A stretch of DNA of 64,000 bases from an uncultured Alphaproteobacteria bacterium. Lineage in GTDB: Bacteria > Pseudomonadota > Alphaproteobacteria > Rs-D84. A program made the translations under genes and the position numbers. The stretch spans positions 11,867 to 75,866 of the forward strand of contig CAMRWN010000004.1 of assembly GCA_947054455.1 (NCBI GenBank). Reading direction: 5' to 3'. The notes below the pieces were generated by a model, which saw only the letters and a list, made by a program, of their open reading frames with translations, ran no database searches and had not been told where the DNA came from. Positions 2,922-59,177 of the stretch are shown here, piece after piece. Each line of letters opens with the position of its first letter. The first letter of the stretch is position 1.

Positions 2922-2999
2922 AGAACCATTTTGTCGCTTTGGACTTGGTGATTATAGTCTTTTTTCTGACAAATGCAAGTTTTTATCACATTATTTTTC

Positions 3000-3887
3000 C
3001 TAGGCTGTGTGATTGCCGCCGGTGATGCCGTATACTTCGGCGGTTGTATAGCTCGATTCGTCGGACGCCAGCAACACGAATGTCGCGGCCAGTTCCGCCG
3101 GCTGGCCCGCGCGCCCCAGTGGTGTGTTGCGCCCAAAATCGGGTATATCTTTTTGTGCGCGGCCGCCGGAAATTTGCAGCGCAGTCCATATCGGCCCCGG
3201 CGCCACCGAATTAACGCGCACGCCGCGGTGTGCGATTTGCTTGGCCAGGGCGCGCGTGAATGCGACTATCGCGGCCTTGGTCGCGGCATAGTCGACCAAA
3301 TCCTTGCCCGGCTGGTACGCCTGGATAGAGGAGGTGGTTATAATCGACGCGCCTGGTTTTAGCAAGGGAAGTGCCTGCTGCGCCATCCAGAACATTGAAA
3401 ACAAATTTATGGAAAAGGTGCGCTTTAGTTGCGTGGTGGTCAGTTTTGTTATGTCGGGACAGAACTGCTGGTATCCGGCGTTCATAACGATTATGTCCAG
3501 TCCGCCCAGTTTGCGCGCCGCGTCGCGTACGCATCGCCGGCAGAATTTTTCGTCGCCAATGTCGCCCGGAATCAGGAATGCGCGCACGCCGGCGTCCGTG
3601 ATGTATTGCGCGACTTCGCGGGCGTCGCGTTCCTCGGCCGGCAGGTATGAAATCGCGACATCCGCCCCTTCGCGTGCGAATGCGATTGCCGCCGCGCGGC
3701 CGATGCCCGAATCGCCGCCTGTTATCAGCGCGCGCCGTCCCGCCAGGCGGCCGTGGCCCACATACGACTGTTCGCCGCAGTCTGGAACCGGCTTCATTTT
3801 TGATTCTATTCCCGGATATGCCTGACGCTGGGTCGGGTACTTTTTATTATAGTATTTGGTGGTCGGATTTGTGTTTTGACGTTTCAT
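3000..3887 (-). CDS. yghA: Short-chain dehydrogenase/reductase, YghA-like
   Basis: 295 aa. It is nearly colinear with E. coli YghA as I recall it ([50 protein letters not shown]; SSIQAYQP; YAATKAA). Confidence 0.85.
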
Positions 3888-15644: not shown

Positions 15645-15668
15645 GTCAAATTCCGTTTTTTCAACGAC

Positions 15669-15697
15669 ATTATATCATAATTTGCACATCACAACAA
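15669..15697 (-). promoter_or_regulatory. Candidate sigma70 promoter for sufC
   Basis: The minus strand reads TTGTTG-N17-TATAAT with a TG extension (TGATATAAT), about 25 nt upstream of the sufC ATG. Confidence 0.4.
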
Positions 15698-15726
15698 GCC
15701 GAAGGCTTTGATATGCGTAATAAGCG

Positions 15727-15755
15727 TTGACTTGCGCTGGGAAAAAATTTACTAT
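15727..15755 (+). promoter_or_regulatory. Candidate sigma70 promoter upstream of the palindrome cassette and Cys-rich gene
   Basis: TTGACT-N17-TACTAT, about 20 nt upstream of the palindrome at 15775. Confidence 0.45.
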
Positions 15756-15774
15756 TTCACATAGAAATGCATGC

Positions 15775-15800
15775 CTAATCCAAACCACCGTTTGGATTAG
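15775..15800. promoter_or_regulatory. Perfect palindromic site CTAATCCAAAC-CACC-GTTTGGATTAG
   Basis: 11-bp perfect inverted arms around a 4-bp core. It belongs to the recurring motif family (see 15861, 21245, 27741, 27840). Confidence 0.85.
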
Positions 15801-15860
15801 TTTTTATTTGGCGCAAAAAATTCCTGAAAATTCGCATAATTTTTCTGTCCCCACTTGCCG

Positions 15861-15877
15861 AATCCAAACGGTGGTTT
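15861..15877. promoter_or_regulatory. Partly decayed partner site AATCCAAAC-GGTG-GTTT
   Basis: The left arm is intact and the right arm is truncated. The core GGTG is the reverse complement of the CACC core at 15786-15789. It lies 31 nt upstream of the ATG at 15909. Confidence 0.6.
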
Positions 15878-15908
15878 AAAAGCGTGTGTGGATTTTTTTT
15901 GGGGGAAT

Positions 15909-16511
15909 ATGCAAAAATTAATTGCGATGTCGTTCTTTATCTTTTGTGGTGCGATTAGTACAGCTGCCGCAGTGTCTGGGGATTATTGCCTGCTGGACTA
16001 TAACGGCGGCGACGGTCTGTGCTATTGGTGCGCGCCGGGCGGTGATTCCGGTGGATACTGCAGGCCGCCTTATCCCGGTTGTCCGGATAATCCACAGCGT
16101 GTGGTGGCACTTGGGGACGTTATAACTGTAAAGGATGCGTATGGGAATACAACAACACGCAAGTGTCGTTCAGATGGTTTTTGCTTTCCCTCTTGCACTG
16201 GTGAGCGTTGGTTTAATGATGGAAATGGATTTGAAATGCTGCAGCTGGTATCTGGATGTATGTGCGATTATTGGACATCAACATCGAATTATCGATGCGC
16301 AGAAGGGTATTTTGAGAGCATAGACAGTCCTTATCAGAACGGATGCGACAGATGTCCGTCCATGACAAATGTCGCGGGGGATGTTGTATACGGAACCAGT
16401 GTCCCGAGTGAAAATCGTTCGATAACCGATTGCGTAATGAAGGAGGGTGTTGTGTTTTCTGACAACAGCGGCGAGTATACATTTATATCAGGATGCGCGT
16501 ATACGGAATGA
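15909..16511 (+). CDS. Secreted cysteine-rich protein (unknown family)
   Basis: I place the start at MQKLIAMSFFIFCGAISTAAAVSG (signal peptide), with RBS GGGGGA. The mature part has about 20 Cys with CxxGYF and GCDRCP-type spacing. This segment appears lower in GC than the flanks by eye. Confidence 0.7.
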   Translation: MQKLIAMSFFIFCGAISTAAAVSGDYCLLDYNGGDGLCYWCAPGGDSGGYCRPPYPGCPDNPQRVVALGDVITVKDAYGNTTTRKCRSDGFCFPSCTGERWFNDGNGFEMLQLVSGCMCDYWTSTSNYRCAEGYFESIDSPYQNGCDRCPSMTNVAGDVVYGTSVPSENRSITDCVMKEGVVFSDNSGEYTFISGCAYTE

Positions 16512-21184: not shown

Positions 21185-21213
21185 TTGATAAAATAGGCGC
21201 AATGTCTTATAAT
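21185..21213 (+). promoter_or_regulatory. Strong sigma70-like promoter
   Basis: TTGATA-N17-TATAAT, about 30 nt upstream of the decayed palindrome at 21245. Confidence 0.55.
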
Positions 21214-21244
21214 ATACGGTGTGCGGGGTGGAAATGTCCTGCCG

Positions 21245-21261
21245 AATCCAAACGGTGGATT
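21245..21261. promoter_or_regulatory. Shortened copy of the palindromic site (AATCCAAAC-GGTG-GATT)
   Basis: It has the same left arm and GGTG core as 15861. The right arm carries a deletion of about 5 nt. Confidence 0.55.
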
Positions 21262-21323
21262 GTTTTGGCAATATTTGCATATTGAAAAATCCCCGAATTC
21301 TGCTGCATTTGGTTCCCTCGTTT

Positions 21324-21539
21324 TTGCCTAATCCAAACGACCGCTTTTTTTCTCTTTTATTATTCTGTGGCGCGGTTCCGCAATTGGCGCATGGCGCCGG
21401 ATATTCCTGTCCCGCATACAAGATGTACACCAAGTGTTCGTTCGGACGGTATATGTCTTATGATGGTCAGTATAACGCAACGCCGCGTGCCGGAAACGAA
21501 TGCGTTGTATTCCGCACGCCAGACCACGCCAGCAATTAA
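21324..21539 (+). pseudogene. Probable decayed paralogue of the Cys-rich secreted family
   Basis: FFSLLLFCGAVPQLAHGAG resembles the signal peptide SFFIFCGAISTAAAVSG of the 15909 gene. There is no ATG and no good RBS, only an in-frame TTG at 21324. The C-terminus seems to continue in another frame (21540-21645). Confidence 0.3.
21329..21340. promoter_or_regulatory. Half-site TAATCCAAACGA
   Basis: This 12-mer is identical to the one at 24907-24918. No right arm is present. Confidence 0.45.
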
Positions 21540-24769: not shown

Positions 24770-24906
24770 ATCTTTTCTTGTCAATACAATGTATATACAA
24801 GGCGCGGAAATCTGGCAAAAAAACGAATCGTTGTCAAAAAATAAATGTTCAAAAATTGATTAACATTCGGTTGCAAATAGAAATTAATCTTATAACTTAA
24901 CTGACG

Positions 24907-24918
24907 TAATCCAAACGA
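24907..24918. promoter_or_regulatory. Isolated half-site TAATCCAAACGA in the AT-rich dprA-dnaA spacer
   Basis: It matches the left arm of the palindrome family exactly. It is also the closest thing to a DnaA box (TTATCCACA) that I can see in this spacer. Confidence 0.35.
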
Positions 24919-25085: not shown

Positions 25086-26366
25086 ATGCAGGCAGCGGCA
25101 ACAAAACAAATGACAAACTTGGACGCAATCAAGGGGGCCATTGCCGCAAAAATGGATTCTGCAAGCTTTACATCATGGATTGCCCCGCTGGCGTTTGATG
25201 TTGCCGACGGTGTGTTGCATCTGACTGCGCAGAATCAGTTTTCTGCAGACTTTATAACCAGTGTTCATTCCAATGCGTTGAATGCGGCGGCGGCCGAATT
25301 TGGTCTGGCGGTGCGCGTGGGTGTGCGCGGCGCGGCGGCGCCCGTCGCCCCGGTTGCGAACGATAACAACGCCCAGGCGTATGCGCCGGCGGCAGAAATC
25401 GTCGCGGCCCCGTCGGCCGGGTTTGATTCGTTTGTCGTCGCCGATGAAAACGCGTTTGTCGTATCTGCATGCAAGAAACTGGCGGCGGGCGCGGTTTCGT
25501 TCAGCCCACTGTTTATATACGGGCCGGCGGGCTGCGGGAAATCTTTGCTGGCGGAATGCATCCGCGGATGCGCCGCAGGCAGCACCGTAATGATGACCGG
25601 CGGCCAGTTTGTGGCGGAATTCACACGCAGCCTGCACAACCACAGCGTATTCGCATTCAAGGATTTCTGCCGCAACTGCGACACGTTCATCTTGGACGAC
25701 GTTCAGGCGTTGGCGGGCAAGCGTGCGACAACCGAAGAGTTTCTGCAGCTGGTCGTGGATTTGCGCGCGGCTGGAAAAAATATTGTACTGACTGCGAACG
25801 CGGCGCCGAACAATTTGTCCGGATTCGACCGCCGGATGCAGTCTCTGCTGGCGTCGGGATTGGTTGCGGACGTTGTTGCGCCGACGGCGAACGTGCGTCG
25901 CGTGATGTTGATGCGCGCCGGGGTTGGCGCGGATGTCGCGGCCGAAATCGCGGGACGCGTGGCGGCGGACGGACATATGATTGCGGGCGTGGCGACTAAA
26001 ATCAAAACGTATGCAGAACTGATGGGCGCGTCCGTTGACATGGATGTGGCGCAGCGTCTGCTGGCCGATACGTTGCAAAAGGCGAAAACACCGCTGGCGA
26101 TGGTTCGCAATATGTGTGAAAAACTGGGTGTCTCGTATGAGGCTGTATGCGGGGCGGGGCGCAGCCGCGGGTTGGTTATGGCGCGCCAGACAATGATGGC
26201 GGTTCTGAAGGGGGCGACAAATCTGTCCCTGGCGGAAATCGGTCGTTTCGTTGGCGACCGCAATCATGCGACGGTTCTGTATGCCATCAACCAGGTTGAG
26301 AAATTGAAAAAGACGGATTTGGTTTTGTCCGCCCAAATCGACCAGCTGATTGCAGAATGCAAATAA
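25086..26366 (+). CDS. dnaA: Chromosomal replication initiator DnaA
   Basis: AAA+ core (LFIYGPAGCGKSLL, FILDDVQ) and domain IV (RQTMMAVLKGATNLSLAEIGRFVGDRNHATVLYAINQV). Confidence 0.9.
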   Translation: MQAAATKQMTNLDAIKGAIAAKMDSASFTSWIAPLAFDVADGVLHLTAQNQFSADFITSVHSNALNAAAAEFGLAVRVGVRGAAAPVAPVANDNNAQAYAPAAEIVAAPSAGFDSFVVADENAFVVSACKKLAAGAVSFSPLFIYGPAGCGKSLLAECIRGCAAGSTVMMTGGQFVAEFTRSLHNHSVFAFKDFCRNCDTFILDDVQALAGKRATTEEFLQLVVDLRAAGKNIVLTANAAPNNLSGFDRRMQSLLASGLVADVVAPTANVRRVMLMRAGVGADVAAEIAGRVAADGHMIAGVATKIKTYAELMGASVDMDVAQRLLADTLQKAKTPLAMVRNMCEKLGVSYEAVCGAGRSRGLVMARQTMMAVLKGATNLSLAEIGRFVGDRNHATVLYAINQVEKLKKTDLVLSAQIDQLIAECK

Positions 26367-26384: not shown

Positions 26385-26416
26385 AAAAAATCCCCCGTGT
26401 CTGGGGGATGTTTTTT
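26385..26416. terminator. Bidirectional terminator shared by dnaA and the Cys-rich gene
   Basis: ATCCCCC-GTGTCT-GGGGGAT, flanked by an A-run and a T-run. Confidence 0.65.
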
Positions 26417-26733
26417 CTTTACTGCACCCCTACATTGAACTGGTCTTTCCAGCCTGCGACCACCTGGCCGCCTACGACGCAATTAATATCCTCAAAACCG
26501 TCTTCGACCTGGTTCTTTTTTATCACGCTGCTGGTTATCAGACCACCCGCTGTTCCCAGAACAACACCGGCAACACTGTCCGATACCAGACGCGCACCGT
26601 TGAACTTGCCGTCTTCGTTCTTCCATTTAGATACCTTGAAGCCGTTTGACAGCTTCTCCAGCTCGGAATACGAATTCGATATACGACTCGCTATTTGACG
26701 ACGAGCGCCAGCGGATACTTTACTGCCAGAAGC
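26406..26733. repeat. Left copy of a perfect 328-bp inverted repeat
   Basis: Hand comparison shows it is the exact reverse complement of 28363-28690. It covers the last 105 codons plus 13 nt of 3' UTR. Confidence 0.95.
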
Positions 26734-27723
26734 ATCATCTGATGACGAAGGCGGCGGCGTAGGAGTTGTGCCTTCCTGCTGAAAATTATTGATTGTCAAA
26801 TTAATAAGTATCAATATCTGATTTACCTCGCTCTGGCTGACGTTTCCGTCTTTGCACAATTGCAATAGGCGCTGAATATGCACACGTGCATCCGCAGGCG
26901 TTTTTTCATTCGCCAACAGTCCGTTCAGCATAGCAATCATTTCCGGCGTACAGGTAAACGGTGCATTGCCTCCCTGGTCATCCGACGGCACCGCTATGCA
27001 AACACCACGGCCACCTTGGATTTCAAATTTCAGTCCGCCCGCGCAAACGCACGAATCGGATTTTGCGTCATATGTTGCAACCTCGCTGCTCAGATCACAA
27101 CAGGCCTTGCCGTTTGTTGTGGTGCGCAATTCCTTGCAAGTTTTTTTGACAGGTGCCGGTTCATCCTTCTTTTCGTCTTCTTTTTCTTTCACGGCGATGC
27201 TATGACAGCGCATTTGCAGTGTTTGGTTCACATATTCGCATTTTGCATTGAAAGCGGTTCCGTTTCTGTCGGTGTTTATATCAAACTGCAGACATTCGCT
27301 GGCGGTTAAAGCAGCCGGTTTGCCGTCTGCCCCCATATACCACTGATTTTCCTGGATATATGTTCCGCGGTACTGGCATGCGATAGACTGCTTTATCCAT
27401 CTGTCCGGCCCAACTGTAGAGCAGCGATATTGCACGGCGTATGGTATTACTTTTTCCTCAAAAACATGGTTTGGGCCCATTGTAATGACGTGATTGTTTT
27501 TGCAATGTTTGTTATCGCATTCAAAAACATTCCCGTTGACCGTACCGCCGTCTTTGCGGTTTTTTATTGAATTATAAGCTGTCAGCGTATCGTACAGGAA
27601 TTCATCATCTGACGCAGCCTGGTTGCCGTCAAAACTGACATGTGATTCTCCGCACATGGTTTCTGCCCCCCATGCGCCAGCCAGTGTCAGGAATAACGCG
27701 GGAACAATTAACAATTTATTCAT
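26419..27723 (-). CDS. Secreted cysteine-rich protein with the shared C-terminal anchor module (gene A)
   Basis: I place the start at MNKLLIVPALFLTLAGAWG (RBS GGAGAGG); an alternative ATG lies at 27735. The ~330-aa Cys-rich ectodomain is followed by a Pro/Ser linker and then a C-terminal 105 aa identical to those of gene B. Confidence 0.75.
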   Translation of the reverse strand: MNKLLIVPALFLTLAGAWGAETMCGESHVSFDGNQAASDDEFLYDTLTAYNSIKNRKDGGTVNGNVFECDNKHCKNNHVITMGPNHVFEEKVIPYAVQYRCSTVGPDRWIKQSIACQYRGTYIQENQWYMGADGKPAALTASECLQFDINTDRNGTAFNAKCEYVNQTLQMRCHSIAVKEKEDEKKDEPAPVKKTCKELRTTTNGKACCDLSSEVATYDAKSDSCVCAGGLKFEIQGGRGVCIAVPSDDQGGNAPFTCTPEMIAMLNGLLANEKTPADARVHIQRLLQLCKDGNVSQSEVNQILILINLTINNFQQEGTTPTPPPSSSDDASGSKVSAGARRQIASRISNSYSELEKLSNGFKVSKWKNEDGKFNGARLVSDSVAGVVLGTAGGLITSSVIKKNQVEDGFEDINCVVGGQVVAGWKDQFNVGVQ

Positions 27724-27740
27724 GGGCCTCTCCATATATA

Positions 27741-27764
27741 TAATCCAAACGTTGGTTTGGATTA
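27741..27764. promoter_or_regulatory. Perfect palindromic site TAATCCAAAC-GTTG-GTTTGGATTA
   Basis: 10-bp perfect arms and a 4-bp core. It lies 17 nt upstream of the gene A start codon on the minus strand. Confidence 0.85.
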
Positions 27765-27782
27765 GGCAATTAATGCCATTTA

Positions 27783-27811
27783 ATTATATGTGATTTTATC
27801 ATATTTTTCAG
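27783..27811 (-). promoter_or_regulatory. Candidate sigma70 promoter facing gene A
   Basis: The minus strand reads CTGAAA-N17-TATAAT. The -35 lies inside the conserved AATTCCTGAAAA box. The best match facing gene B is much weaker (TTTAAT-N17-TATTTT). Confidence 0.4.
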
Positions 27812-27839
27812 GAATTTAAAACACCAAAATCATGTCTGT

Positions 27840-27860
27840 TCCAAACCAACGTTTGGATTA
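27840..27860. promoter_or_regulatory. Partner palindromic site TCCAAAC-CAAC-GTTTGGATTA
   Basis: It is a 21-nt exact reverse complement of 27744-27764. The core CAAC is the reverse complement of GTTG. It lies 19 nt upstream of the gene B ATG. Confidence 0.75.
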
Positions 27861-27879
27861 GGCAAATACGGGAGGCAAA

Positions 27880-28677
27880 ATGAAAAAATTAATACACGCT
27901 ATAACCGCAATCGTTTTTGCTGCGTCCGCAGCCCATGCGGATACAAGCTGCTTTAAAAAAAGTCAATCCAACAGCCGTGATTTTGATTATCACGTCTTGT
28001 TCCTGCATGACAAAGATGAAATAGAAGACTGGCAGTGCCTGACTTCATTAAAAGCCGAATTGAACAGAATCGAGGTCGGAAACTGTCAGCTTATCCTGCT
28101 TATCGGCAGTGCGGATACCAAAGGCAGTCAAAGTTATAACACGGACTTGGCCAAACGCCGCGTTCAATATGTTGCCGGCTTATTCAATGAACCCCTGCAA
28201 CCAAAACTGCTGTTGTATACCGGCGGCGATTCGAATGCATATAACTATACCCCCGACGAGACATCATATCCAGACGAACGTGCCGTCCGTATAATGGTTA
28301 AAACATCCAATGTATGCAATATTGAACCAGAACAAGAAGACAACCAGGAGCCTGAAAATAAAGCTTCTGGCAGTAAAGTATCCGCTGGCGCTCGTCGTCA
28401 AATAGCGAGTCGTATATCGAATTCGTATTCCGAGCTGGAGAAGCTGTCAAACGGCTTCAAGGTATCTAAATGGAAGAACGAAGACGGCAAGTTCAACGGT
28501 GCGCGTCTGGTATCGGACAGTGTTGCCGGTGTTGTTCTGGGAACAGCGGGTGGTCTGATAACCAGCAGCGTGATAAAAAAGAACCAGGTCGAAGACGGTT
28601 TTGAGGATATTAATTGCGTCGTAGGCGGCCAGGTGGTCGCAGGCTGGAAAGACCAGTTCAATGTAGGGGTGCAGTAA
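27880..28677 (+). CDS. Secreted OmpA_C-like (peptidoglycan-binding) protein with the shared C-terminal anchor module (gene B)
   Basis: Signal peptide MKKLIHAITAIVFAASAAHA. OmpA-C-like block LIGSADTKGSQSYNTDLAKRRVQYVAGLF...ERAVRIMV. The C-terminal 105 aa are identical to those of gene A. Confidence 0.75.
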   Translation: MKKLIHAITAIVFAASAAHADTSCFKKSQSNSRDFDYHVLFLHDKDEIEDWQCLTSLKAELNRIEVGNCQLILLIGSADTKGSQSYNTDLAKRRVQYVAGLFNEPLQPKLLLYTGGDSNAYNYTPDETSYPDERAVRIMVKTSNVCNIEPEQEDNQEPENKASGSKVSAGARRQIASRISNSYSELEKLSNGFKVSKWKNEDGKFNGARLVSDSVAGVVLGTAGGLITSSVIKKNQVEDGFEDINCVVGGQVVAGWKDQFNVGVQ

Positions 28678-28690
28678 AGAAAAAACATCC
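28363..28690. repeat. Right copy of the perfect 328-bp inverted repeat
   Basis: It is the exact reverse complement of 26406-26733. The repeat ends where the two different terminator hairpins begin. Confidence 0.95.
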
Positions 28691-49772: not shown

Positions 49773-51407
49773 ATGAAACATAGTGTGTGGATTTCAACAA
49801 TAGCGGTTGTTTGTGTTATTTGCGCATCGGTGTCCGATGCGAATGCGGCGGCGTCCGTGCGTTCGCTGGGGGGGGCTGGCACATACAGCAGCGCGTCCGC
49901 CGCGTCTTCGGCCGCGTCGGCAAAGCCCAGTGCCGCAATCAATGCGGTGCGCGGTGGTTCCATGCGTGTTTCGCCGTCGGCTTCGGCGCGGCCCGGTACA
50001 CCGGTAAAGACGACGGGAACCCCGATAACAACGCAGCGTTTGTCCATAGGTAAACATTTGGGTGGTGCGACATCGGTCAGCGGCGGTTCGTCGACGCGTC
50101 CCGGCACGAGTGGTGGTGGAACCAGTGGCGGCGGCACGCTGGATCCGGGGGCTACGGCCGATTTGGAACGCCAGATTGACGATTTGTACAGCCAGGTGGA
50201 TAAACTGGGCAAGGCCGACGAAGACCTGGCCGCGGCGCTGGATGGAAAGCAGGCGGCGCTGAATTCCACCGACGGACTGATTGTTATTGAAGACGACGGC
50301 AACATGTCGCTGGACGTCGAAGGATTAAAGGCGGCGATGGATGTCGCAGTCGGCCAGGATGGCCGCGAGGTTGTAATCGGCACCAATGCCGTCGGTGATA
50401 TTGTGTGGCAGTACGAAGGCGACGGCCCCGATGAATGGCAGTTGCTGATTGCAAAACAAGATTTGGTTGGTCCCCAGGGCCCCCAGGGTGAAAAGGGTGA
50501 GCCGGGAATCGCGGCGGATATGGACTTGTATTCCACAACCGCGGAAATGAATGACGCCATTGCGTCGGCGATAACCGCGGCATCAGCCGGATGGGCCACT
50601 AAGGAGGATTTGGAAGCCAAGGCCGAGAAAACCGAACTGGCGGGGTTGGCAACCAAGGAAGAGGTCAAGACTTCGTTTGATGCCATTTCACAGGATATAA
50701 ACACCGCGCTGGACGATGTATACACCAAGGCCGAAGTGGACGAGAAGGTTGCGGATGTTGTCGCCGGCGACATGAGCGAGGCGTTGAAAGCCTATGCCAC
50801 GACAGAACAGTTGAATGCCGGTCTGGCCGGCAAGGCTTCAACGTCTGATTTGACGAAATTGGAAGCTACGGTCATATCGGTCGGTAATGCGGCCGACGGC
50901 GCCAAGGCCGCGGCCGATGCGGCGGCCAAGTCCGCAGAGGAGGCAAAGACCGCGCTGACTGGCAAGGCGGACAAATCTGAGATACCGACCGTTCCGACCA
51001 AGGTCAGCGAGTTTCAAAATGATGCCGGATATCTGACGGCGCACCAGTCGCTGGCGGGATTGGCGACCAAGGAAGAACTGGCCGCGTACGCGACGACCGA
51101 CGCGGTTAACAAGACGGTCAATGATGTAAAAACCGAACTGCAGGAAGAAATTCAGAACGTTGTTGCCGGCGACGTCAGCCAGGAAATCAACAACGCTGTG
51201 GCGCAACAGGTTCAGAATATCAAAATTACCAATACCCAGATTGCGGCGGATGCGGAAATCGCGCGTTCGAAGCTGGCGGCTGATGTCCGTGCATCTTTGG
51301 ATGCCGCGGATTCCATGATAACGGCACCGCAAACCGGCGACTTTGTTCTGTTTGTCAGCGATGGTGAAAAGAGCTGGGCCAAGGTCGTTGATGCAAACGG
51401 ACAATAG
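49773..51407 (+). CDS. Secreted fibre protein 1 (collagen-like triplets plus coiled-coil, tail-fibre-like)
   Basis: Signal peptide, a Ser/Ala/Gly-rich region, GPQGPQGEKGEPG (50469-50507), repeated LAGLATKEE units and the tail GDFVLFVSDGEKSWAKVV. Confidence 0.7.
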   Translation: MKHSVWISTIAVVCVICASVSDANAAASVRSLGGAGTYSSASAASSAASAKPSAAINAVRGGSMRVSPSASARPGTPVKTTGTPITTQRLSIGKHLGGATSVSGGSSTRPGTSGGGTSGGGTLDPGATADLERQIDDLYSQVDKLGKADEDLAAALDGKQAALNSTDGLIVIEDDGNMSLDVEGLKAAMDVAVGQDGREVVIGTNAVGDIVWQYEGDGPDEWQLLIAKQDLVGPQGPQGEKGEPGIAADMDLYSTTAEMNDAIASAITAASAGWATKEDLEAKAEKTELAGLATKEEVKTSFDAISQDINTALDDVYTKAEVDEKVADVVAGDMSEALKAYATTEQLNAGLAGKASTSDLTKLEATVISVGNAADGAKAAADAAAKSAEEAKTALTGKADKSEIPTVPTKVSEFQNDAGYLTAHQSLAGLATKEELAAYATTDAVNKTVNDVKTELQEEIQNVVAGDVSQEINNAVAQQVQNIKITNTQIAADAEIARSKLAADVRASLDAADSMITAPQTGDFVLFVSDGEKSWAKVVDANGQ

Positions 51408-51473
51408 GAATGAAACAATTTCGCTGGCTTTCTTATAAAAAGCGGTGATAAAGGCAAGAAAAGGAAGTATGAA

Positions 51474-52364
51474 ATGAAAATAAAAAATATTGCTTTTTCC
51501 GGGGTGGCGGCGGCCATATTCGGCATGAGTGCGGCACATGCGGCGCCTGTGGAAATCGCAAGCCGGGCATATGTGGACAATGTCAGGGACGCGACATTGC
51601 AAACAGTGTCCAATACATATATCACCAGCGAGGATGCCGCGAACACATACGTTAACAACACGCAGCTGGGCGACCAGATTACAAACAATATAACCAACGC
51701 GCTGCAGGATGCAGATTCCGCAATTGCCAAGGAATTGGCGACCAAGGCGGACGCGTCGGATGTAAATACGCTGCGCACGGATGTAAACGGATTGAAAACG
51801 GCGGTCGGCGACGAGACGTCGGGTCTGACCAAGGCAACGGCGGACGCGGCGGCAACGGCGGCGGCGGCCGACAAAAAGGCGTCCGATGCAGCGGCCCAGG
51901 CCACAAAAAATGCCACTGATTTGACGGCGCTGGACGTTCGGGTTACGAAAAATACAAATGATATCGCTGCTATAAACAGCGGCATCGACAAAACTGTTGC
52001 CGATGCGATTGCGGGCGCCTTGACCGGCGAGGGTGAAATCAAGGAATCCATTGATGCCGCAATTGATAGCGCGATTGGGGATTTGCCGATTGGTACACTG
52101 ACAACGGATGTTGCAAACTTAAAGACAACCGTTGGCGATGACACGACCGGTCTGGTAAAGGATGTTGCCGACAATTCGGCTGCAATTGAAACATTAAACG
52201 GTGATGAAAATACAGCAGGCAGTGTTGCAAACACTGTCAAATCCTTGGCGGTGCCACAGCCGACAGGTGATTGCGCAGCACAATCAGGACGTTGCGTATT
52301 GTCTTATGACACGACCGCAAAGGGCGTTGTCTGGATGGATGTGACGTCGCCGCTTGGTGAATAA
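51474..52364 (+). CDS. Secreted fibre protein 2 (tail-fibre-like)
   Basis: Signal ...SAAHA|APVEIASRAYVD, repeated KADxSDV/LNGxxxTAGSV units and the C-terminal CAAQSGRCVLSYDTTAKGVVWMDV. Confidence 0.7.
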   Translation: MKIKNIAFSGVAAAIFGMSAAHAAPVEIASRAYVDNVRDATLQTVSNTYITSEDAANTYVNNTQLGDQITNNITNALQDADSAIAKELATKADASDVNTLRTDVNGLKTAVGDETSGLTKATADAAATAAAADKKASDAAAQATKNATDLTALDVRVTKNTNDIAAINSGIDKTVADAIAGALTGEGEIKESIDAAIDSAIGDLPIGTLTTDVANLKTTVGDDTTGLVKDVADNSAAIETLNGDENTAGSVANTVKSLAVPQPTGDCAAQSGRCVLSYDTTAKGVVWMDVTSPLGE

Positions 52365-52392
52365 AACAAATAAAAAGTAAAGGAAGAAAATT

Positions 52393-53307
52393 ATGAAAAA
52401 ATTAACTGCTGGTATTTTCACTGTCATGCTGGGCATTGTCGGCATGGGCGCGGCGAACGCGGAAATTGCGTCCAAGGCGTATGTTGACCAAACAACAGGC
52501 TCCGTTGAGACAAAGGTAGAAAGCCTGACGCAAATTGTGAATGCAAATGCCGGTACCGCCGCAGACAACAAAGAAGCGATAGAAACATTGACCAGCCAAC
52601 TGGAGGGCAAGGCCGATACATCCGCGTTGGATACGCTGGCGGGGCGCGTAGATGCAAACACCGCTTCGATTACAACGCTGAACGGTTCCGGCGAGGGCAG
52701 TGTTGCAAAGAAAATTACGGATGCGTTGACACCCTATGCCAAGACCGCCGATGTTGCGACCCAGATTCAGGGTGCGACCGCCGGATTGTTGAGTGCGACA
52801 GACGCCGATGCGGCATATGCACCGATTGCGACCAAGGACACTGCGGATGCCAACAAGGCCGCTATTGAAAAATTGAACGGCACGGCTGAAACAGCGGGCA
52901 GTATCTTGAACACTTTGGCGCCTTATGCCAAAACGGCTGATGTAAACGCATCTTTGGCCGACGTAAATACCGAAGTGGGCAAGAAAGTTTCCACGGATAC
53001 ATATAATACACAAATCGGTGTGGTTAACCCAACGAATATGGGTGCGTCCGCCAGTGCGACAACGGTTGTTGCCGGTATCAAGGAAGCAAACGAGAATGTT
53101 AAAAGGAACGAACAGAATATTACTGCCAACCGCGAGGCGATTGATAAAAGCTTAGCCGAATTGGGTACGGATGTTGAAAGCAGACTGCCGCGTCCGACCG
53201 ACGCATGTGCGGATCCAAAGAACAAGTGTGTTCTGGTGTCTGCGGGCAAAGGTAATTATACATGGGAAGTTATAGAACGCGGTACCAGCGAAACTTCTGG
53301 AAACTAG
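52393..53307 (+). CDS. Secreted fibre protein 3 (tail-fibre-like)
   Basis: Signal ...GAANA|EIASKAYVDQ, with the same repeat grammar and the C-terminal CADPKNKCVLVSAGKGNYTWEVI. Confidence 0.7.
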   Translation: MKKLTAGIFTVMLGIVGMGAANAEIASKAYVDQTTGSVETKVESLTQIVNANAGTAADNKEAIETLTSQLEGKADTSALDTLAGRVDANTASITTLNGSGEGSVAKKITDALTPYAKTADVATQIQGATAGLLSATDADAAYAPIATKDTADANKAAIEKLNGTAETAGSILNTLAPYAKTADVNASLADVNTEVGKKVSTDTYNTQIGVVNPTNMGASASATTVVAGIKEANENVKRNEQNITANREAIDKSLAELGTDVESRLPRPTDACADPKNKCVLVSAGKGNYTWEVIERGTSETSGN

Positions 53308-53318
53308 GCACGGGTTGT

Positions 53319-53348
53319 GCATGGATTGGCGTCAATGCCAATCCATGC
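53319..53348. other. Perfect 12-bp stem hairpin between fibre genes 3 and 4
   Basis: GCATGGATTGGC-GTCAAT-GCCAATCCATGC. No T-run follows. Confidence 0.6.
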
Positions 53349-53419
53349 GCCCGACGCGTGGACATACACAGACATTGCGTAAATATTTATAAGACATATA
53401 CGAAAGAGCAGAACTGATT

Positions 53420-54730
53420 ATGAAAAAAGCGACGAGTATTTTTGTAATTTCTATGATTGCCGCGGTTGTTTCTGGGCCGGCGCGGGCCGATGTGGCCAGT
53501 GCGGGTTTCGTGCGTGAAATGCTGGACGGGGCCGAGGTTTCCGCCAACAAGGAAACCAGCATCAGCGATTATGATGTTCAGGATGCGAACAAGTATCCTA
53601 ACATGCCGGTCGCCCAGCAGATGATTTTGGATTCCCAGTCGTCCATCCAGGGCCAGCTGAAGACGGAATCAAACGCACGCAAGGCAGAAGACGAAAAATT
53701 ACAGACGGCGTTGAACGCGGTTAAATCGACGGCCGACACTGCGGTTCAGCCCGGCGATTTGGCGGCGGTTGCGACAAGCGGGTCTTATAATGATTTGACG
53801 AACAAGCCGGCAATTCCCGCCGCCCAGGTTCAGTCGGATTGGAATGCGACAACCGGTGTTGCGGCGATAAAGAACAAGCCGACCATTCCGACCAAGGTCA
53901 GCCAGCTGACCAATGACAGCGGATTTGCAACAACAACTGCGGTTAACGCAAAGGTTTCCACCGCACAGGGCGACACTAACAAGAACAAGGCCGTCATCAC
54001 CGATGCGTCGGGAAACATCACGACCGGCACCGTTTCGTCCGCCATGATTACCGATGGCACGATTGTAAACGCCGATATTGCGTCAAATGCGGCAATCGCT
54101 GCGTCCAAGATTGCGGGCCTGGCGGCGGTTGCGACAACTGGGTCTTATAATGATTTGGCGAACAAGCCGACGATTCCCCCCGCAATAACCGTTGATTCCG
54201 CATTAAGTGCGACCAGCACAAATCCGGTTCAAAACAAGGTTGTAAACACCGCGCTGTCGGGCAAGCAGGCTACATTGTCGGCCGCGCAGTTAAATGCCGC
54301 GAATTCGGGTATCACCAGTGCAAAGGTCGCCACATACGACGGATATGCGCAGCAGATTGCAGGCAAACAGGCGGCCCTGGGGTATACAGCGGAAAATTCG
54401 GCAAACAAAACCACGACTATCGCCGCCGCGGCCAGTGCCAGCGATACAAAATATCCGTCCGAGAAAGCCGTTGCAACCGCATTGTCGGGCAAACTGGCGA
54501 CAACAGGCACGGCGGCGCGTGCGACCGCAGACGCGTCGGGCAACAATATCGCCAGCACCTATGCCACCAAGGCACAGTTGAACAATCTGGACGCCACGGC
54601 GACGGGTACGGGGGCTGTTATCGTAAATGTCTCGCAGACAGACGGGAAAATTACCGCAACCAAGGGAAATGTTCAAATCCCAGTCGGCAGTGCAACCGGC
54701 ACGACATATGCAACCATATGGGTTCAATAA
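53420..54730 (+). CDS. Secreted fibre protein 4 (phage tail-fibre repeat protein)
   Basis: Signal ...GPARA|DVASAGFV. There are two copies of LAAVAT(S/T)GSYNDL(T/A)NKP(A/T)IP, a motif I associate with phage tail fibres, and the protein is Thr/Ala/Asn-rich. Confidence 0.7.
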   Translation: MKKATSIFVISMIAAVVSGPARADVASAGFVREMLDGAEVSANKETSISDYDVQDANKYPNMPVAQQMILDSQSSIQGQLKTESNARKAEDEKLQTALNAVKSTADTAVQPGDLAAVATSGSYNDLTNKPAIPAAQVQSDWNATTGVAAIKNKPTIPTKVSQLTNDSGFATTTAVNAKVSTAQGDTNKNKAVITDASGNITTGTVSSAMITDGTIVNADIASNAAIAASKIAGLAAVATTGSYNDLANKPTIPPAITVDSALSATSTNPVQNKVVNTALSGKQATLSAAQLNAANSGITSAKVATYDGYAQQIAGKQAALGYTAENSANKTTTIAAAASASDTKYPSEKAVATALSGKLATTGTAARATADASGNNIASTYATKAQLNNLDATATGTGAVIVNVSQTDGKITATKGNVQIPVGSATGTTYATIWVQ

Positions 54731-58157: not shown

Positions 58158-59177
58158 GTGGCGCATCAATTTTATTTTAACCCGTATATCTTGGACAATC
58201 TGCCCGCGCCGGCATCTGGTTTTGATGTGGTCCAGGACCTGTCGGATCCGCGTCTGCGCATGTATATAACCAGTCGGGGGGTCAAAACGTTCTTTGTCCG
58301 CAAACGTGTAGGCGGACGCGACCGGCGCATAATAATAGGAAATTATCCCGACATGGATATAGAGGACGCGCGCAGCGCGGTTCCCGTCATTTTGGAAAGT
58401 GCGTCGCAGAAAAAGCCCGCGCGCCGCAACAAGATAACATTTAAAAAATTTCTGGACTTGTATCTTGACAGGCGCGTGCGCCGGGGCGAGGATTCACGCA
58501 CAAAGCTGGTGCGTGCCATAGATCGTCATTTGTCGGCGCTGTTTGAAAAGAATATTTCCGAAATAACCGCTCAAGATATTGCGGCGGTTATCGCCACGAT
58601 ACGCGGCGCGGCAATCGCAGGCCGCATGCAGGAATTGGTGCAGAGCATTTTCAACTATGCCGTCGATGCCGGATATGTAAAAGAAAATCCGGCAGCGTCC
58701 CTGGCCAAGGTTCCCCAGAACAGGCGTGTTCGCCCGCTGACCCGGGGCGGGTTGGTGCGACTGGTGGATGCGATACGTGCGGAACCAGACACGGTTGTGC
58801 GCGCGGCGTTTCTGATGCTGATATATGGGTTTGCGCCAAAGTCCAAAATTTTTTCAATGCAGTGGGAACAGCTGGACTTTAATCATTATATGTGGGGCGA
58901 TATGCCGTTGTCGGATGCGGCGGTGGTGTTGCTGCGTGATTTGCCCCAGGACAGTTTCTGGGTTTTTCCCGGTCGCGGCGGCAGTCATTTGACCGACCCG
59001 CGTTGCGCATGGCGGCGCGTTGCAACCGCGGCGGGGATTCCTGATTTGACAATGGATGACGTGAATAAATTCCTGATGCGCAGGCTGGTTTGGACGTCAG
59101 ACAAAGAAGAATTTCGCATGAATATGAATTCTTTACTGGAAGAAATTTCGGACACGGAAATCGACAGTAATTTTTAG
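58158..59177 (+). CDS. Tyrosine-recombinase (P4-type integrase) homologue with apparently degenerate catalytic residues
   Basis: GTG start. The DUF4102-like N-terminus (LRMYITSRGVKTFFVRKRVGGRDRRIIIGNYPDMDIEDAR) and the SAM-like core are recognisable. The box I Arg, the box II His and the C-terminal Tyr cannot be found. Confidence 0.6.
   Translation: MAHQFYFNPYILDNLPAPASGFDVVQDLSDPRLRMYITSRGVKTFFVRKRVGGRDRRIIIGNYPDMDIEDARSAVPVILESASQKKPARRNKITFKKFLDLYLDRRVRRGEDSRTKLVRAIDRHLSALFEKNISEITAQDIAAVIATIRGAAIAGRMQELVQSIFNYAVDAGYVKENPAASLAKVPQNRRVRPLTRGGLVRLVDAIRAEPDTVVRAAFLMLIYGFAPKSKIFSMQWEQLDFNHYMWGDMPLSDAAVVLLRDLPQDSFWVFPGRGGSHLTDPRCAWRRVATAAGIPDLTMDDVNKFLMRRLVWTSDKEEFRMNMNSLLEEISDTEIDSNF

Follow-up and report, generated by a model that had tools for sequence, protein, structure and literature searches.

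Partner-matched inverted sites at surface-protein genes of Rs-D84 alphaproteobacteria as candidate very short invertible switches

Two divergent surface-protein genes and the sites between them

The DNA analysed here, referred to as the window, is a stretch of 64,000 nt (contig CAMRWN010000004.1 of assembly GCA_947054455.1) from an uncultured alphaproteobacterium of the Rs-D84 lineage. Between two of its divergently transcribed genes, which we call A and B, lies a short segment bracketed by two palindromic sites in inverted orientation (unit r3, 27740-27861), and two further units of the same design are found at 15771-15877 (r1) and 21239-21346 (r2). A model that had read the letters alone had proposed that r3 might be an invertible promoter, with an operator pair or leader hairpins as equally good explanations. 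Our follow-up of this sequence-only reading places the sites in a family whose cores are matched between partners and whose middle segments occur in both orientations across loci, and we regard the units as candidate substrates of a serine invertase. The features of r3 and its flanking genes are the following.

26419-27723, minus strand: gene A, 434 amino acids, signal peptide, Cys-rich, no Pfam domain
27740-27765: left site (inverted repeat left, IRL), ATAATCCAAACG-TT-GGTTTGGATTAG, central TT at 27752-27753, dyad arms of 11-12 bp
27766-27835: middle segment, candidate invertible DNA of ~70 bp; core-to-core distance 96 bp
27773-27802, plus strand: weaker promoter-like match toward gene B, ATGCCA-N18-TATCAT
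27783-27811, minus strand: second, overlapping promoter-like match toward gene A, CTGAAA-N17-TATAAT
27793-27820, minus strand: promoter-like match toward gene A, TTTAAA-N16-TAAAAT with an upstream TG (TGATAAAAT)
27805-27816, minus strand: box AATTCCTGAAAA, the local form of the near-palindromic box TCCCGGAAATCCGGGA of the family
27836-27861: right site (inverted repeat right, IRR), CTGTTCCAAACC-AA-CGTTTGGATTAG, central AA at 27848-27849
27880-28677, plus strand: gene B, 265 amino acids, signal peptide, no Pfam domain

The anatomy of the sites is as had been described. The left palindrome reads TAATCCAAAC-GTTG-GTTTGGATTA at 27741-27764 and the right one TCCAAAC-CAAC-GTTTGGATTA at 27840-27860, and the two form a true inverted pair, 27741-27761 being the exact reverse complement of 27840-27860 over 21 nt. 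With a repeat finder the pair grows to 28 nt at 89% complementarity, and a direct-repeat extension, GGATTAGGCAA, is present at both sites. When up to three mismatches are allowed, TCCAAAC-N4-GTTTGGA is found nine times in the window against 3.25 ± 1.64 expected, a number that none of 100 shuffles reached; its three exact matches are the two sites of r3 and one at 15779. The distance from site to start codon, previously given as 17-19 nt, is 17 nt for gene A (ATG at 27723) and 19 nt for gene B (ATG at 27880), and the box AATTCCTGAAAA lies on the minus strand where it had been placed, with another occurrence in r1 (15819-15830, plus strand). The intergenic gap of 144 bp holds if it is counted from the longest open reading frame (ORF) of gene A (27735) and becomes 156 bp from the ATG that is backed by a ribosome-binding site (RBS) at 27723. 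What did not survive is the idea of a single sigma-70 match, as r3 contains three promoter-like matches, including one that faces gene B. The extended -10 element TGATAAAAT (27793-27803, minus strand) recurs before genes of the same surface-protein family in several species, whether or not palindromic sites are present (L196, 9930-9945; L205, 9910-9925; L192, 2455-2470; L242, 2125-2140).

Genes A and B differ in length but end alike: their last ~104 amino acids are identical, and this shared C-terminal module contains a hydrophobic stretch. At the DNA level the shared 3′ ends form a 333-nt inverted repeat with 99% identity (26406-26738 versus 28358-28690), made of the last ~104 codons plus 13 nt of both genes and enclosing the entire A-switch-B unit. 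The repeat points to recent gene conversion, and homologous recombination between its arms could invert the 1.6-kb A-switch-B unit as a whole.

A family of units in Rs-D84 relatives

A scan for AATCCAAAC-N4-GTTTGGATT across 185,579 species genomes gave repeated matches only in seven metagenome-assembled genomes (MAGs) of uncultured gut alphaproteobacteria, one of them a Candidatus Enterousia, with 16 loci in total; all other matches occurred once per unrelated genome. Enterousia belongs to the order Rs-D84, whose members have genomes mostly below 1 Mb (PMC12306168). The units compared below are 18 double-site units, namely the three of the window and 15 from related loci, a comparison set rather than a whole-genome census. 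They share one plan. A distal site, (A)TGCCTAATCCAAAC-core-GTTTGGATTAGGCA(T), is followed by ~50 nt that include the box TCCCGGAAATCCGGGA in every unit, then by a proximal site, TGCCKAATCCAAAC-core′-GTTT…, and then by a start codon, mostly 9-60 nt away. Every unit examined (~18) abuts a start codon, and the genes behind them encode mostly Cys-rich signal-peptide proteins, together with a glycosyltransferase (L013, L018) and ABC-exporter-like proteins (L025, L051). Surface proteins, glycosyltransferases and ABC exporters are usual targets of phase variation. The core-to-core distance is 85 bp in ten units, 84 bp in three, 83 bp in three, 86 bp in one and 96 bp in one; the last value is unique to r3, whose 11 extra bases correspond to about one helical turn.

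The arms are near-invariant and the cores are not. The core pairs are CACC/GGTG, GGAG/CTCC, GTTG/CAAC, GGCC/GGCC, GTAG/CTAG, GACC/GGTG and GGAC/GTCG, and the central 2 bp are reverse-complementary between partners in 18 of 18 units, in five dinucleotide classes (AC, GA, AA, GC and TA). All five core mismatches occupy outer core positions. The cores are inverted in all 18 units and direct in none, and changes on both sides of the pairing occur in no columns but the four of the core (7, 9, 8 and 6 sequences), with no wobble changes there. The resulting covariation score of 0.182 compares with 0.108 in shuffles, none of which (0/500) reaches it.

Measured against the adjacent gene, the middle segments lie both ways. 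When units are oriented by their gene, global alignments of the middles divide them roughly 8:8, and the same split is obtained independently from strand composition, counted at the two ends of the middle, next to the distal and the proximal site, where the sense strand is either A-rich (A = 4-9/12) or T-rich (T = 5-10/12). The clearest pair is formed by the orthologous glycosyltransferase loci L013 and L018, in which the flanks are colinear and the middle is inverted, the inverted alignment scoring 12.0 (z = 5.3) versus -10.5 (z = 0.4) for the direct one. The two glycosyltransferases are full-length homologues, and P0122, the closest database relative of the L013 locus, is 63% identical to that of L018. 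Two tandem units with their own upstream promoters precede a single glycosyltransferase gene at L013 (5695-5780 and 5451-5536) and at L231 (170-520), and by strand composition the tandem units are in opposite states.

With respect to transcription, the units are of two kinds. Four of them (r3, L062, L011 and L175) have consensus matches to an internal promoter and no promoter outside, whereas ten, including r1 and r2, lack an internal promoter and have a sigma-70-like one ~20 nt before the distal site. In these external-promoter units the T-rich state puts a T-tract right behind the distal hairpin, and the A-rich state has no such tract. The internal promoters outside the window and the features of r1 and r2 are listed below.

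L062 internal promoter, toward the gene: TTGACA-N18-TAAACT
L011 internal promoter, away from the gene: TTGACA-N18-TATGAT
L175 internal promoter, away from the gene: TTGACA-N18-TATTTT with an upstream TG
15727-15755: external promoter of r1, TTGACT-N17-TACTAT
15771-15877, plus strand: r1, distal core CACC at 15786-15789, box, proximal core GGTG at 15870-15873, cores 84 bp apart
15909-16511: gene after r1, encoding a Cys-rich secreted protein
21185-21213: external promoter of r2, TTGATA-N17-TATAAT
21239-21346, plus strand: r2, cores GGTG at 21254-21257 and GACC at 21339-21342, 85 bp apart

In r1 the distal hairpin is followed by TTTTTATTT, and a terminator scanner scored 15775-15800 as terminator-like; because of this arrangement r1 is predicted to be in a terminator-like, OFF state. 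From the composition and promoter matches of the family, we infer that the A-rich or promoter-forward state would be the "on" state of the downstream gene, the two mechanisms being concordant. The recurrence of the r3 layout at r1 and r2 had been noticed before and is borne out, with the exception that no intact ORF lies downstream of r2, so that the signal-peptide gene assigned to this unit is not there.

The r2 locus is also polymorphic. In six samples with an identical secretin protein (L234-L239), a precise 85-bp deletion (window 21254-21339) has removed one site and the middle, and the hybrid site that remains joins the left arm of the first site to the core and right-hand side of the second. 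Slippage between direct-repeat arms is the simplest cause, because the deletion junction falls within a shared 10-nt direct repeat, AATCCAAACG, and the event exemplifies how single-site versions such as L205-L214 can arise. A syntenic contig, L196, lacks all three units and their genes and carries, after dnaA, one plus-strand gene of the surface-protein family. On the same contig (1-1911) sufC and sufB are 17 bp apart; in the window (15645-16511) and at the MAG locus L028 a promoter, a unit and a Cys-rich secreted-protein gene stand between sufC and sufB on the opposite strand, the gene ending flush with the sufB stop codon.

The reach of the family was also delimited from other sides. At the glycosyltransferase orthologues P0126 and P0202, both inside operons, no unit is present, nor was one found at the P0007, P0040 and P0052 loci. 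In a metagenome scan for the double-site pattern, L175 was the sole useful one among the matches listed; a short repeat of no relation to the units, GAGTCCAAACTTTAGTTTGGCAG, which is highly abundant and often tandem or clustered, dominates the matches on the metagenome contigs L071-L190. In the MAG JAEXCU01, at least four loci (L001, L014, L053 and L063) carry an identical promoter and GGCC-core unit before different surface-protein genes, and repeat-induced assembly breaks are suggested by the fact that its contigs end at unit boundaries.

Elsewhere in the window the neighbours include sufC, sufB, tcpQ, secretin genes, rpsT, plsY, dprA, dnaA, a parE/gyrB-like gene, dnaJ and uvrC. A lone half-site, GTAATCCAAACGA, without a partner arm lies at 24906-24918, upstream of the dnaA-like gene (25086-26366). 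A replication origin beside dnaA is not evident, the cumulative GC skew climbing steadily through the window. A series of signal-peptide proteins without a confident Pfam domain is encoded at 49773-54730 (plus strand), with no switch unit upstream; two of them have a common N-terminal motif, EIAS[KR]AYVD, just past the signal peptide.

Proposed serine-invertase inversion and the competing explanations

Which process would keep two sites identical in their arms and complementary in their cores, while the DNA between them occurs in both orientations across loci? We lean towards a family of very short switches operated by a serine invertase of the Hin/Gin/Mpi kind, with the two sites of each unit serving as a crossover pair, as judged from sequence comparison; for active flipping at r3 itself our confidence is somewhat lower. 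The matched cores are central to this view. In strand exchange by serine recombinases such as Hin and Gin, the 2-bp overhangs, the "two core residues", must be identical in both partners (PMC3241671). A matched central 2 bp is expected for this reason, and serine-recombinase strand exchange would yield just such a matched pair with mismatches outside it. Inversion between two such cores would, moreover, regenerate both sites, given the palindromic arms and the complementarity of the cores, and this agrees with the observed sequences.

The sites themselves resemble known crossover sites. Din-family sites have an AAAC-N-NN-N-GTTT centre, as in pixR (TTCTCCCAAACC AA CGTTTATGAAAA), mix (TTCCCCCAAACC AA CGTTTT…) and gixL (TTCCTGTAAACC GA GGTTTTGGATAA) (PMC3241671, Table 3). 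The central 14 nt of the right site of r3, CCAAACC-AA-CGTTT, are identical to the centres of pixR and mix, the r3 arm TAATCCAAACC equals the gix half-site TTATCCAAAACC minus one A and with one substitution, and the crossover dinucleotides of the family include AA and GA, like those of the Din systems. The half-sites of r3 are, on the other side, 1 nt shorter, with the outer TTC/GAA out of register, and we take the likeness to the Hin/Gin/Pin/Min crossover sites as a resemblance and not as a proof. The Din systems (Hin/hix, Gin/gix, Cin/cix, Pin/pix and Min/mix) and the units have in common imperfect dyad half-sites, of 12 bp in Din, and a matching 2-bp crossover. They differ in that Din segments measure 1-4 kb, have the invertase gene inside or adjoining, act on flagellin or phage tail-fibre genes and use a Fis-bound enhancer, none of which is seen here.

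A possible enzyme is encoded in a relative. With a Hin sequence as the query, tblastn matched only L003, a 7.6-kb contig of the MAG that also carries unit L025. The ORF at 2923-3561 (minus strand) of this contig encodes a 212-aa serine recombinase (MDR1337700.1; Pfam Resolvase, 9e-32) that matches, over its full length, the NCBIfam model NF009949, "master DNA invertase Mpi family serine-type recombinase", with 302.7 bits for a cut-off of 272; its closest solved structure is that of Gin, and its NCBI name agrees with the Mpi-family assignment. A perfect palindrome in front of a gene for a 474-aa protein is found 3.9 kb away. The window, for its part, contains no intact recombinase gene, as had been stated. 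Its only integrase-like ORF (58158-59177, plus strand) is degenerate, having arm-binding and core-binding domains and no catalytic-domain match, and in its translation, read by eye, the stretch where R/H-x-x-R would be expected seems to have been replaced. The ORF may encode a tyrosine recombinase that has decayed or taken on another role, and it has no relatives in the other fetched loci.

The Mpi system offers the nearest precedent. In Bacteroides fragilis, Mpi inverts the promoters of capsular polysaccharide loci (Coyne et al. 2003, cited in PMC4747536 and PMC10403206), and it flips 13 dispersed promoter regions (PMC4747536). As those citing passages present it, the system resembles the units in having short dispersed promoter segments, inverted repeats with a shared motif and surface-structure genes of a gut bacterium as targets, all served in Bacteroides by one distant serine "master" invertase. 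The units differ from it in their hosts, Alphaproteobacteria with reduced genomes, in the repeat sequence and in having the promoter mostly outside the segment.

Two other systems illustrate parts of the design. The cwpV switch of Clostridioides difficile is a ~195-bp invertible region acted on by the tyrosine recombinase RecV, with a promoter upstream and a terminator that forms in the 5′-untranslated region (5′-UTR) in one orientation. Its terminator logic is that envisaged for the external-promoter units, although the repeats are unrelated. In Mycoplasma penetrans, each surface-lipoprotein gene of the mpl (P35) family has its own ~135-bp promoter switch, with 12-bp repeats and tyrosine recombinases; as here, the genome is reduced and the switches are very short, in a different phylum.

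According to the mechanism that we propose, the dyad arms (A)TGCCTAATCCAAAC of each site would bind a recombinase dimer around the 2-bp crossover, whose dinucleotide differs between loci and must match that of the partner. The middle being asymmetric, one orientation would give read-through or an active promoter, and in the opposite orientation a U-tract behind the upstream-site hairpin would make a terminator or the promoter would be directed away from the gene. A difference in output between the two orientations would follow from the A-rich strand at both ends of the middle, in all units, and from the internal promoter in some. In the external-promoter units, which are the majority, a flip would toggle a terminator formed by hairpin and U-tract and not a promoter. 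The unit r3 would be a switch common to two divergent genes whose products would share one C-terminal anchor and differ in the part exposed at the N-terminus. With r3 as assembled, the strong TGATAAAAT promoter would point toward gene A and the weaker one toward gene B; a flip would swap them and would leave the same site-derived hairpin before the RBS in each mRNA.

Site anatomy, partner-matched cores, spacing, the two orientations across loci and the invertase gene of a relative are direct observations. Catalysed and frequent inversion, an enzyme encoded in the source genome and an effect on expression are inferences. The proposal of an invertible switch is partly supported, by Din-like sites, by cores matched in 18 of 18 units, by both orientations across loci and in one orthologous pair, and by an Mpi-family enzyme in a relative, and has to be amended in that the promoter lies mostly outside the segment. 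A wider claim, which we make only tentatively, is that Rs-D84 bacteria possess a regulon of the shortest known invertible switches (~85 bp, in whole helical turns), served by a single Mpi-like serine invertase and insulated from one another by their dinucleotides, in which each flip would toggle a promoter or a hairpin-terminator and r3 would alternate between A and B.

Several observations weigh against serine-invertase inversion. The first is size: ~85 bp, of which 50-60 bp lie between the 15-bp arms, would be an unusually small substrate for a serine invertase. To our knowledge no other inverton is this short; among the shortest, those of Mycoplasma penetrans measure ~135 bp and those of Bacteroides roughly 170-230 bp, versus ~85 bp centre to centre here. 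Classic Din invertases, moreover, require a distant Fis-bound enhancer. The Mpi-family enzyme is known from one related contig alone, L003, and no serine or catalytic tyrosine recombinase was found in the 64-kb window or in the other fetched loci. No locus shows both orientations among two to three assemblies each: r1 is identical in a second sample (L233), r3 has the same orientation from 27800 rightward in a second sample (L191, a 1.1-kb contig) and three assemblies of the L013 locus agree in orientation. Of two proteins used to reach further assemblies, the exact DnaA sequence led to just a short contig and the exact SufC sequence had no record. For r3, the assignment to one of the two orientations of the family is weakly supported. 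The gene-proximal outer arm is weakly conserved (mean 8.8/15, versus 12-14 for the other arms), which is odd for a four-arm synapse; the core of one unit family, GGCC, is symmetric; and single-site versions exist (L205-L214, and r2 in six samples). Finally, a role as RNA is possible for the units, because most of them are transcribed from an outside promoter.

This last point underlies the strongest rival, in which the sites would act in the 5′-UTR as local stem-loops (10-15 bp, 4-nt loop) or as a 23-30-bp helix between sites, controlling mRNA stability, RNase III processing, termination or translation with no inversion of DNA. We consider it unlikely. Ten units are transcribed because a sigma-70-like promoter lies ~20 nt upstream of the distal site, and folding is far stronger than in shuffled sequences (r3, z = -9.4 on one strand and -8.1 on the other; r1, z = -2.4). 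Matched cores would keep a long helix continuous, single-site versions are also placed between promoter and RBS, and the two divergent genes A and B meet the same hairpin in their sense strand. However, the arms are invariant in sequence and do not covary, the cores contain no wobble pairs and the mismatches have no G-U bias (18 G/T versus 15 A/C). Neither does a helix predict that mismatches spare the two central positions, that the middle occurs both ways, including in the orthologous pair L013/L018, or that the sites always stand 83-86 bp apart or one turn further. With Rfam, only three tRNAs were identified in the window, and the units gave sub-threshold matches to generic long hairpins (miRNA precursors), none at the gathering score.

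Slightly less probable still is a repeat resembling miniature inverted-repeat transposable elements (MITEs) or Correia elements, with ~30-bp terminal inverted repeats, which would be inverted or deleted by recombination or slippage without a dedicated enzyme or programmed switching. The terminal inverted repeats (28 nt, 89%), the several copies per genome in both orientations, the syntenic contig L196 without all three units and the identical copies that break the assembly of one MAG are all in line with such an element, as is the r2 deletion, whose junction in AATCCAAACG fits slippage and not core exchange. Nevertheless, every examined unit (~18) stands at a gene start and not scattered, and unit and gene are gained or lost together, never as a bare ~115-bp insertion with target duplication. 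No flanking target-site duplication was found at the units examined, and no transposase was seen. The arms are moreover conserved across species while the middles have diverged, and the variable cores are still matched centrally. Neisseria Correia elements are 100-155 bp long, with ~26-bp terminal inverted repeats, promoter-like ends and a co-transcribed long hairpin, and they are present in hundreds of scattered copies with a TA target duplication. The units differ from them in being fixed at gene starts, in their partner-matched variable cores and in lacking the target duplication.

The least probable of the three, and to our judgement improbable, is an operator pair on which a dimeric regulator would loop the ~85 bp (8 helical turns) between the sites and thereby repress or activate the flanking genes. 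Palindromic arms conserved in sequence, a near-integral number of turns with an outlier that is off by one turn and a third palindromic box between the sites would suit looping, but a regulator has no need for spacers complementary between partners (18/18 for the central 2 bp) and looping does not account for flipped middles; in the window no helix-turn-helix regulator is adjacent. The earlier view that operators and hairpins fit as well as inversion is weakened, for operators by the matched cores and for a pure RNA hairpin by the invariant arms, the lack of wobble pairs, the two orientations and the one-turn change of spacing. Other identities were dismissed: DnaA boxes, since the motif, two mismatches from TTATCCACA, recurs in three promoter regions and its cores match between partners; neisserial uptake sequences, of which none was found; integron attC sites, the genes not being in a cassette array; and sigma-54 or extracytoplasmic function (ECF) promoter readings of the arm, for which the spacing is wrong.

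Implications of candidate very short switches in a reduced genome

If serine-invertase inversion is the correct explanation, a genome-reduced gut lineage (<1 Mb, PMC12306168) would devote several loci to phase-variable surface proteins and glycans, which would speak of pressure from the immune system or from phages on a little-known member of the animal-gut community. Units this short may escape inverton finders based on inverted repeats, or be under-called by them. A serine-invertase substrate of ~85 bp would also probe the lower size limit of synapsis, and the conserved whole-turn spacing together with the A-tracts suggests how that limit might be met. The locus-specific matched dinucleotides, in turn, would represent natural orthogonal recombination sites, which could serve as compact genetic switches.

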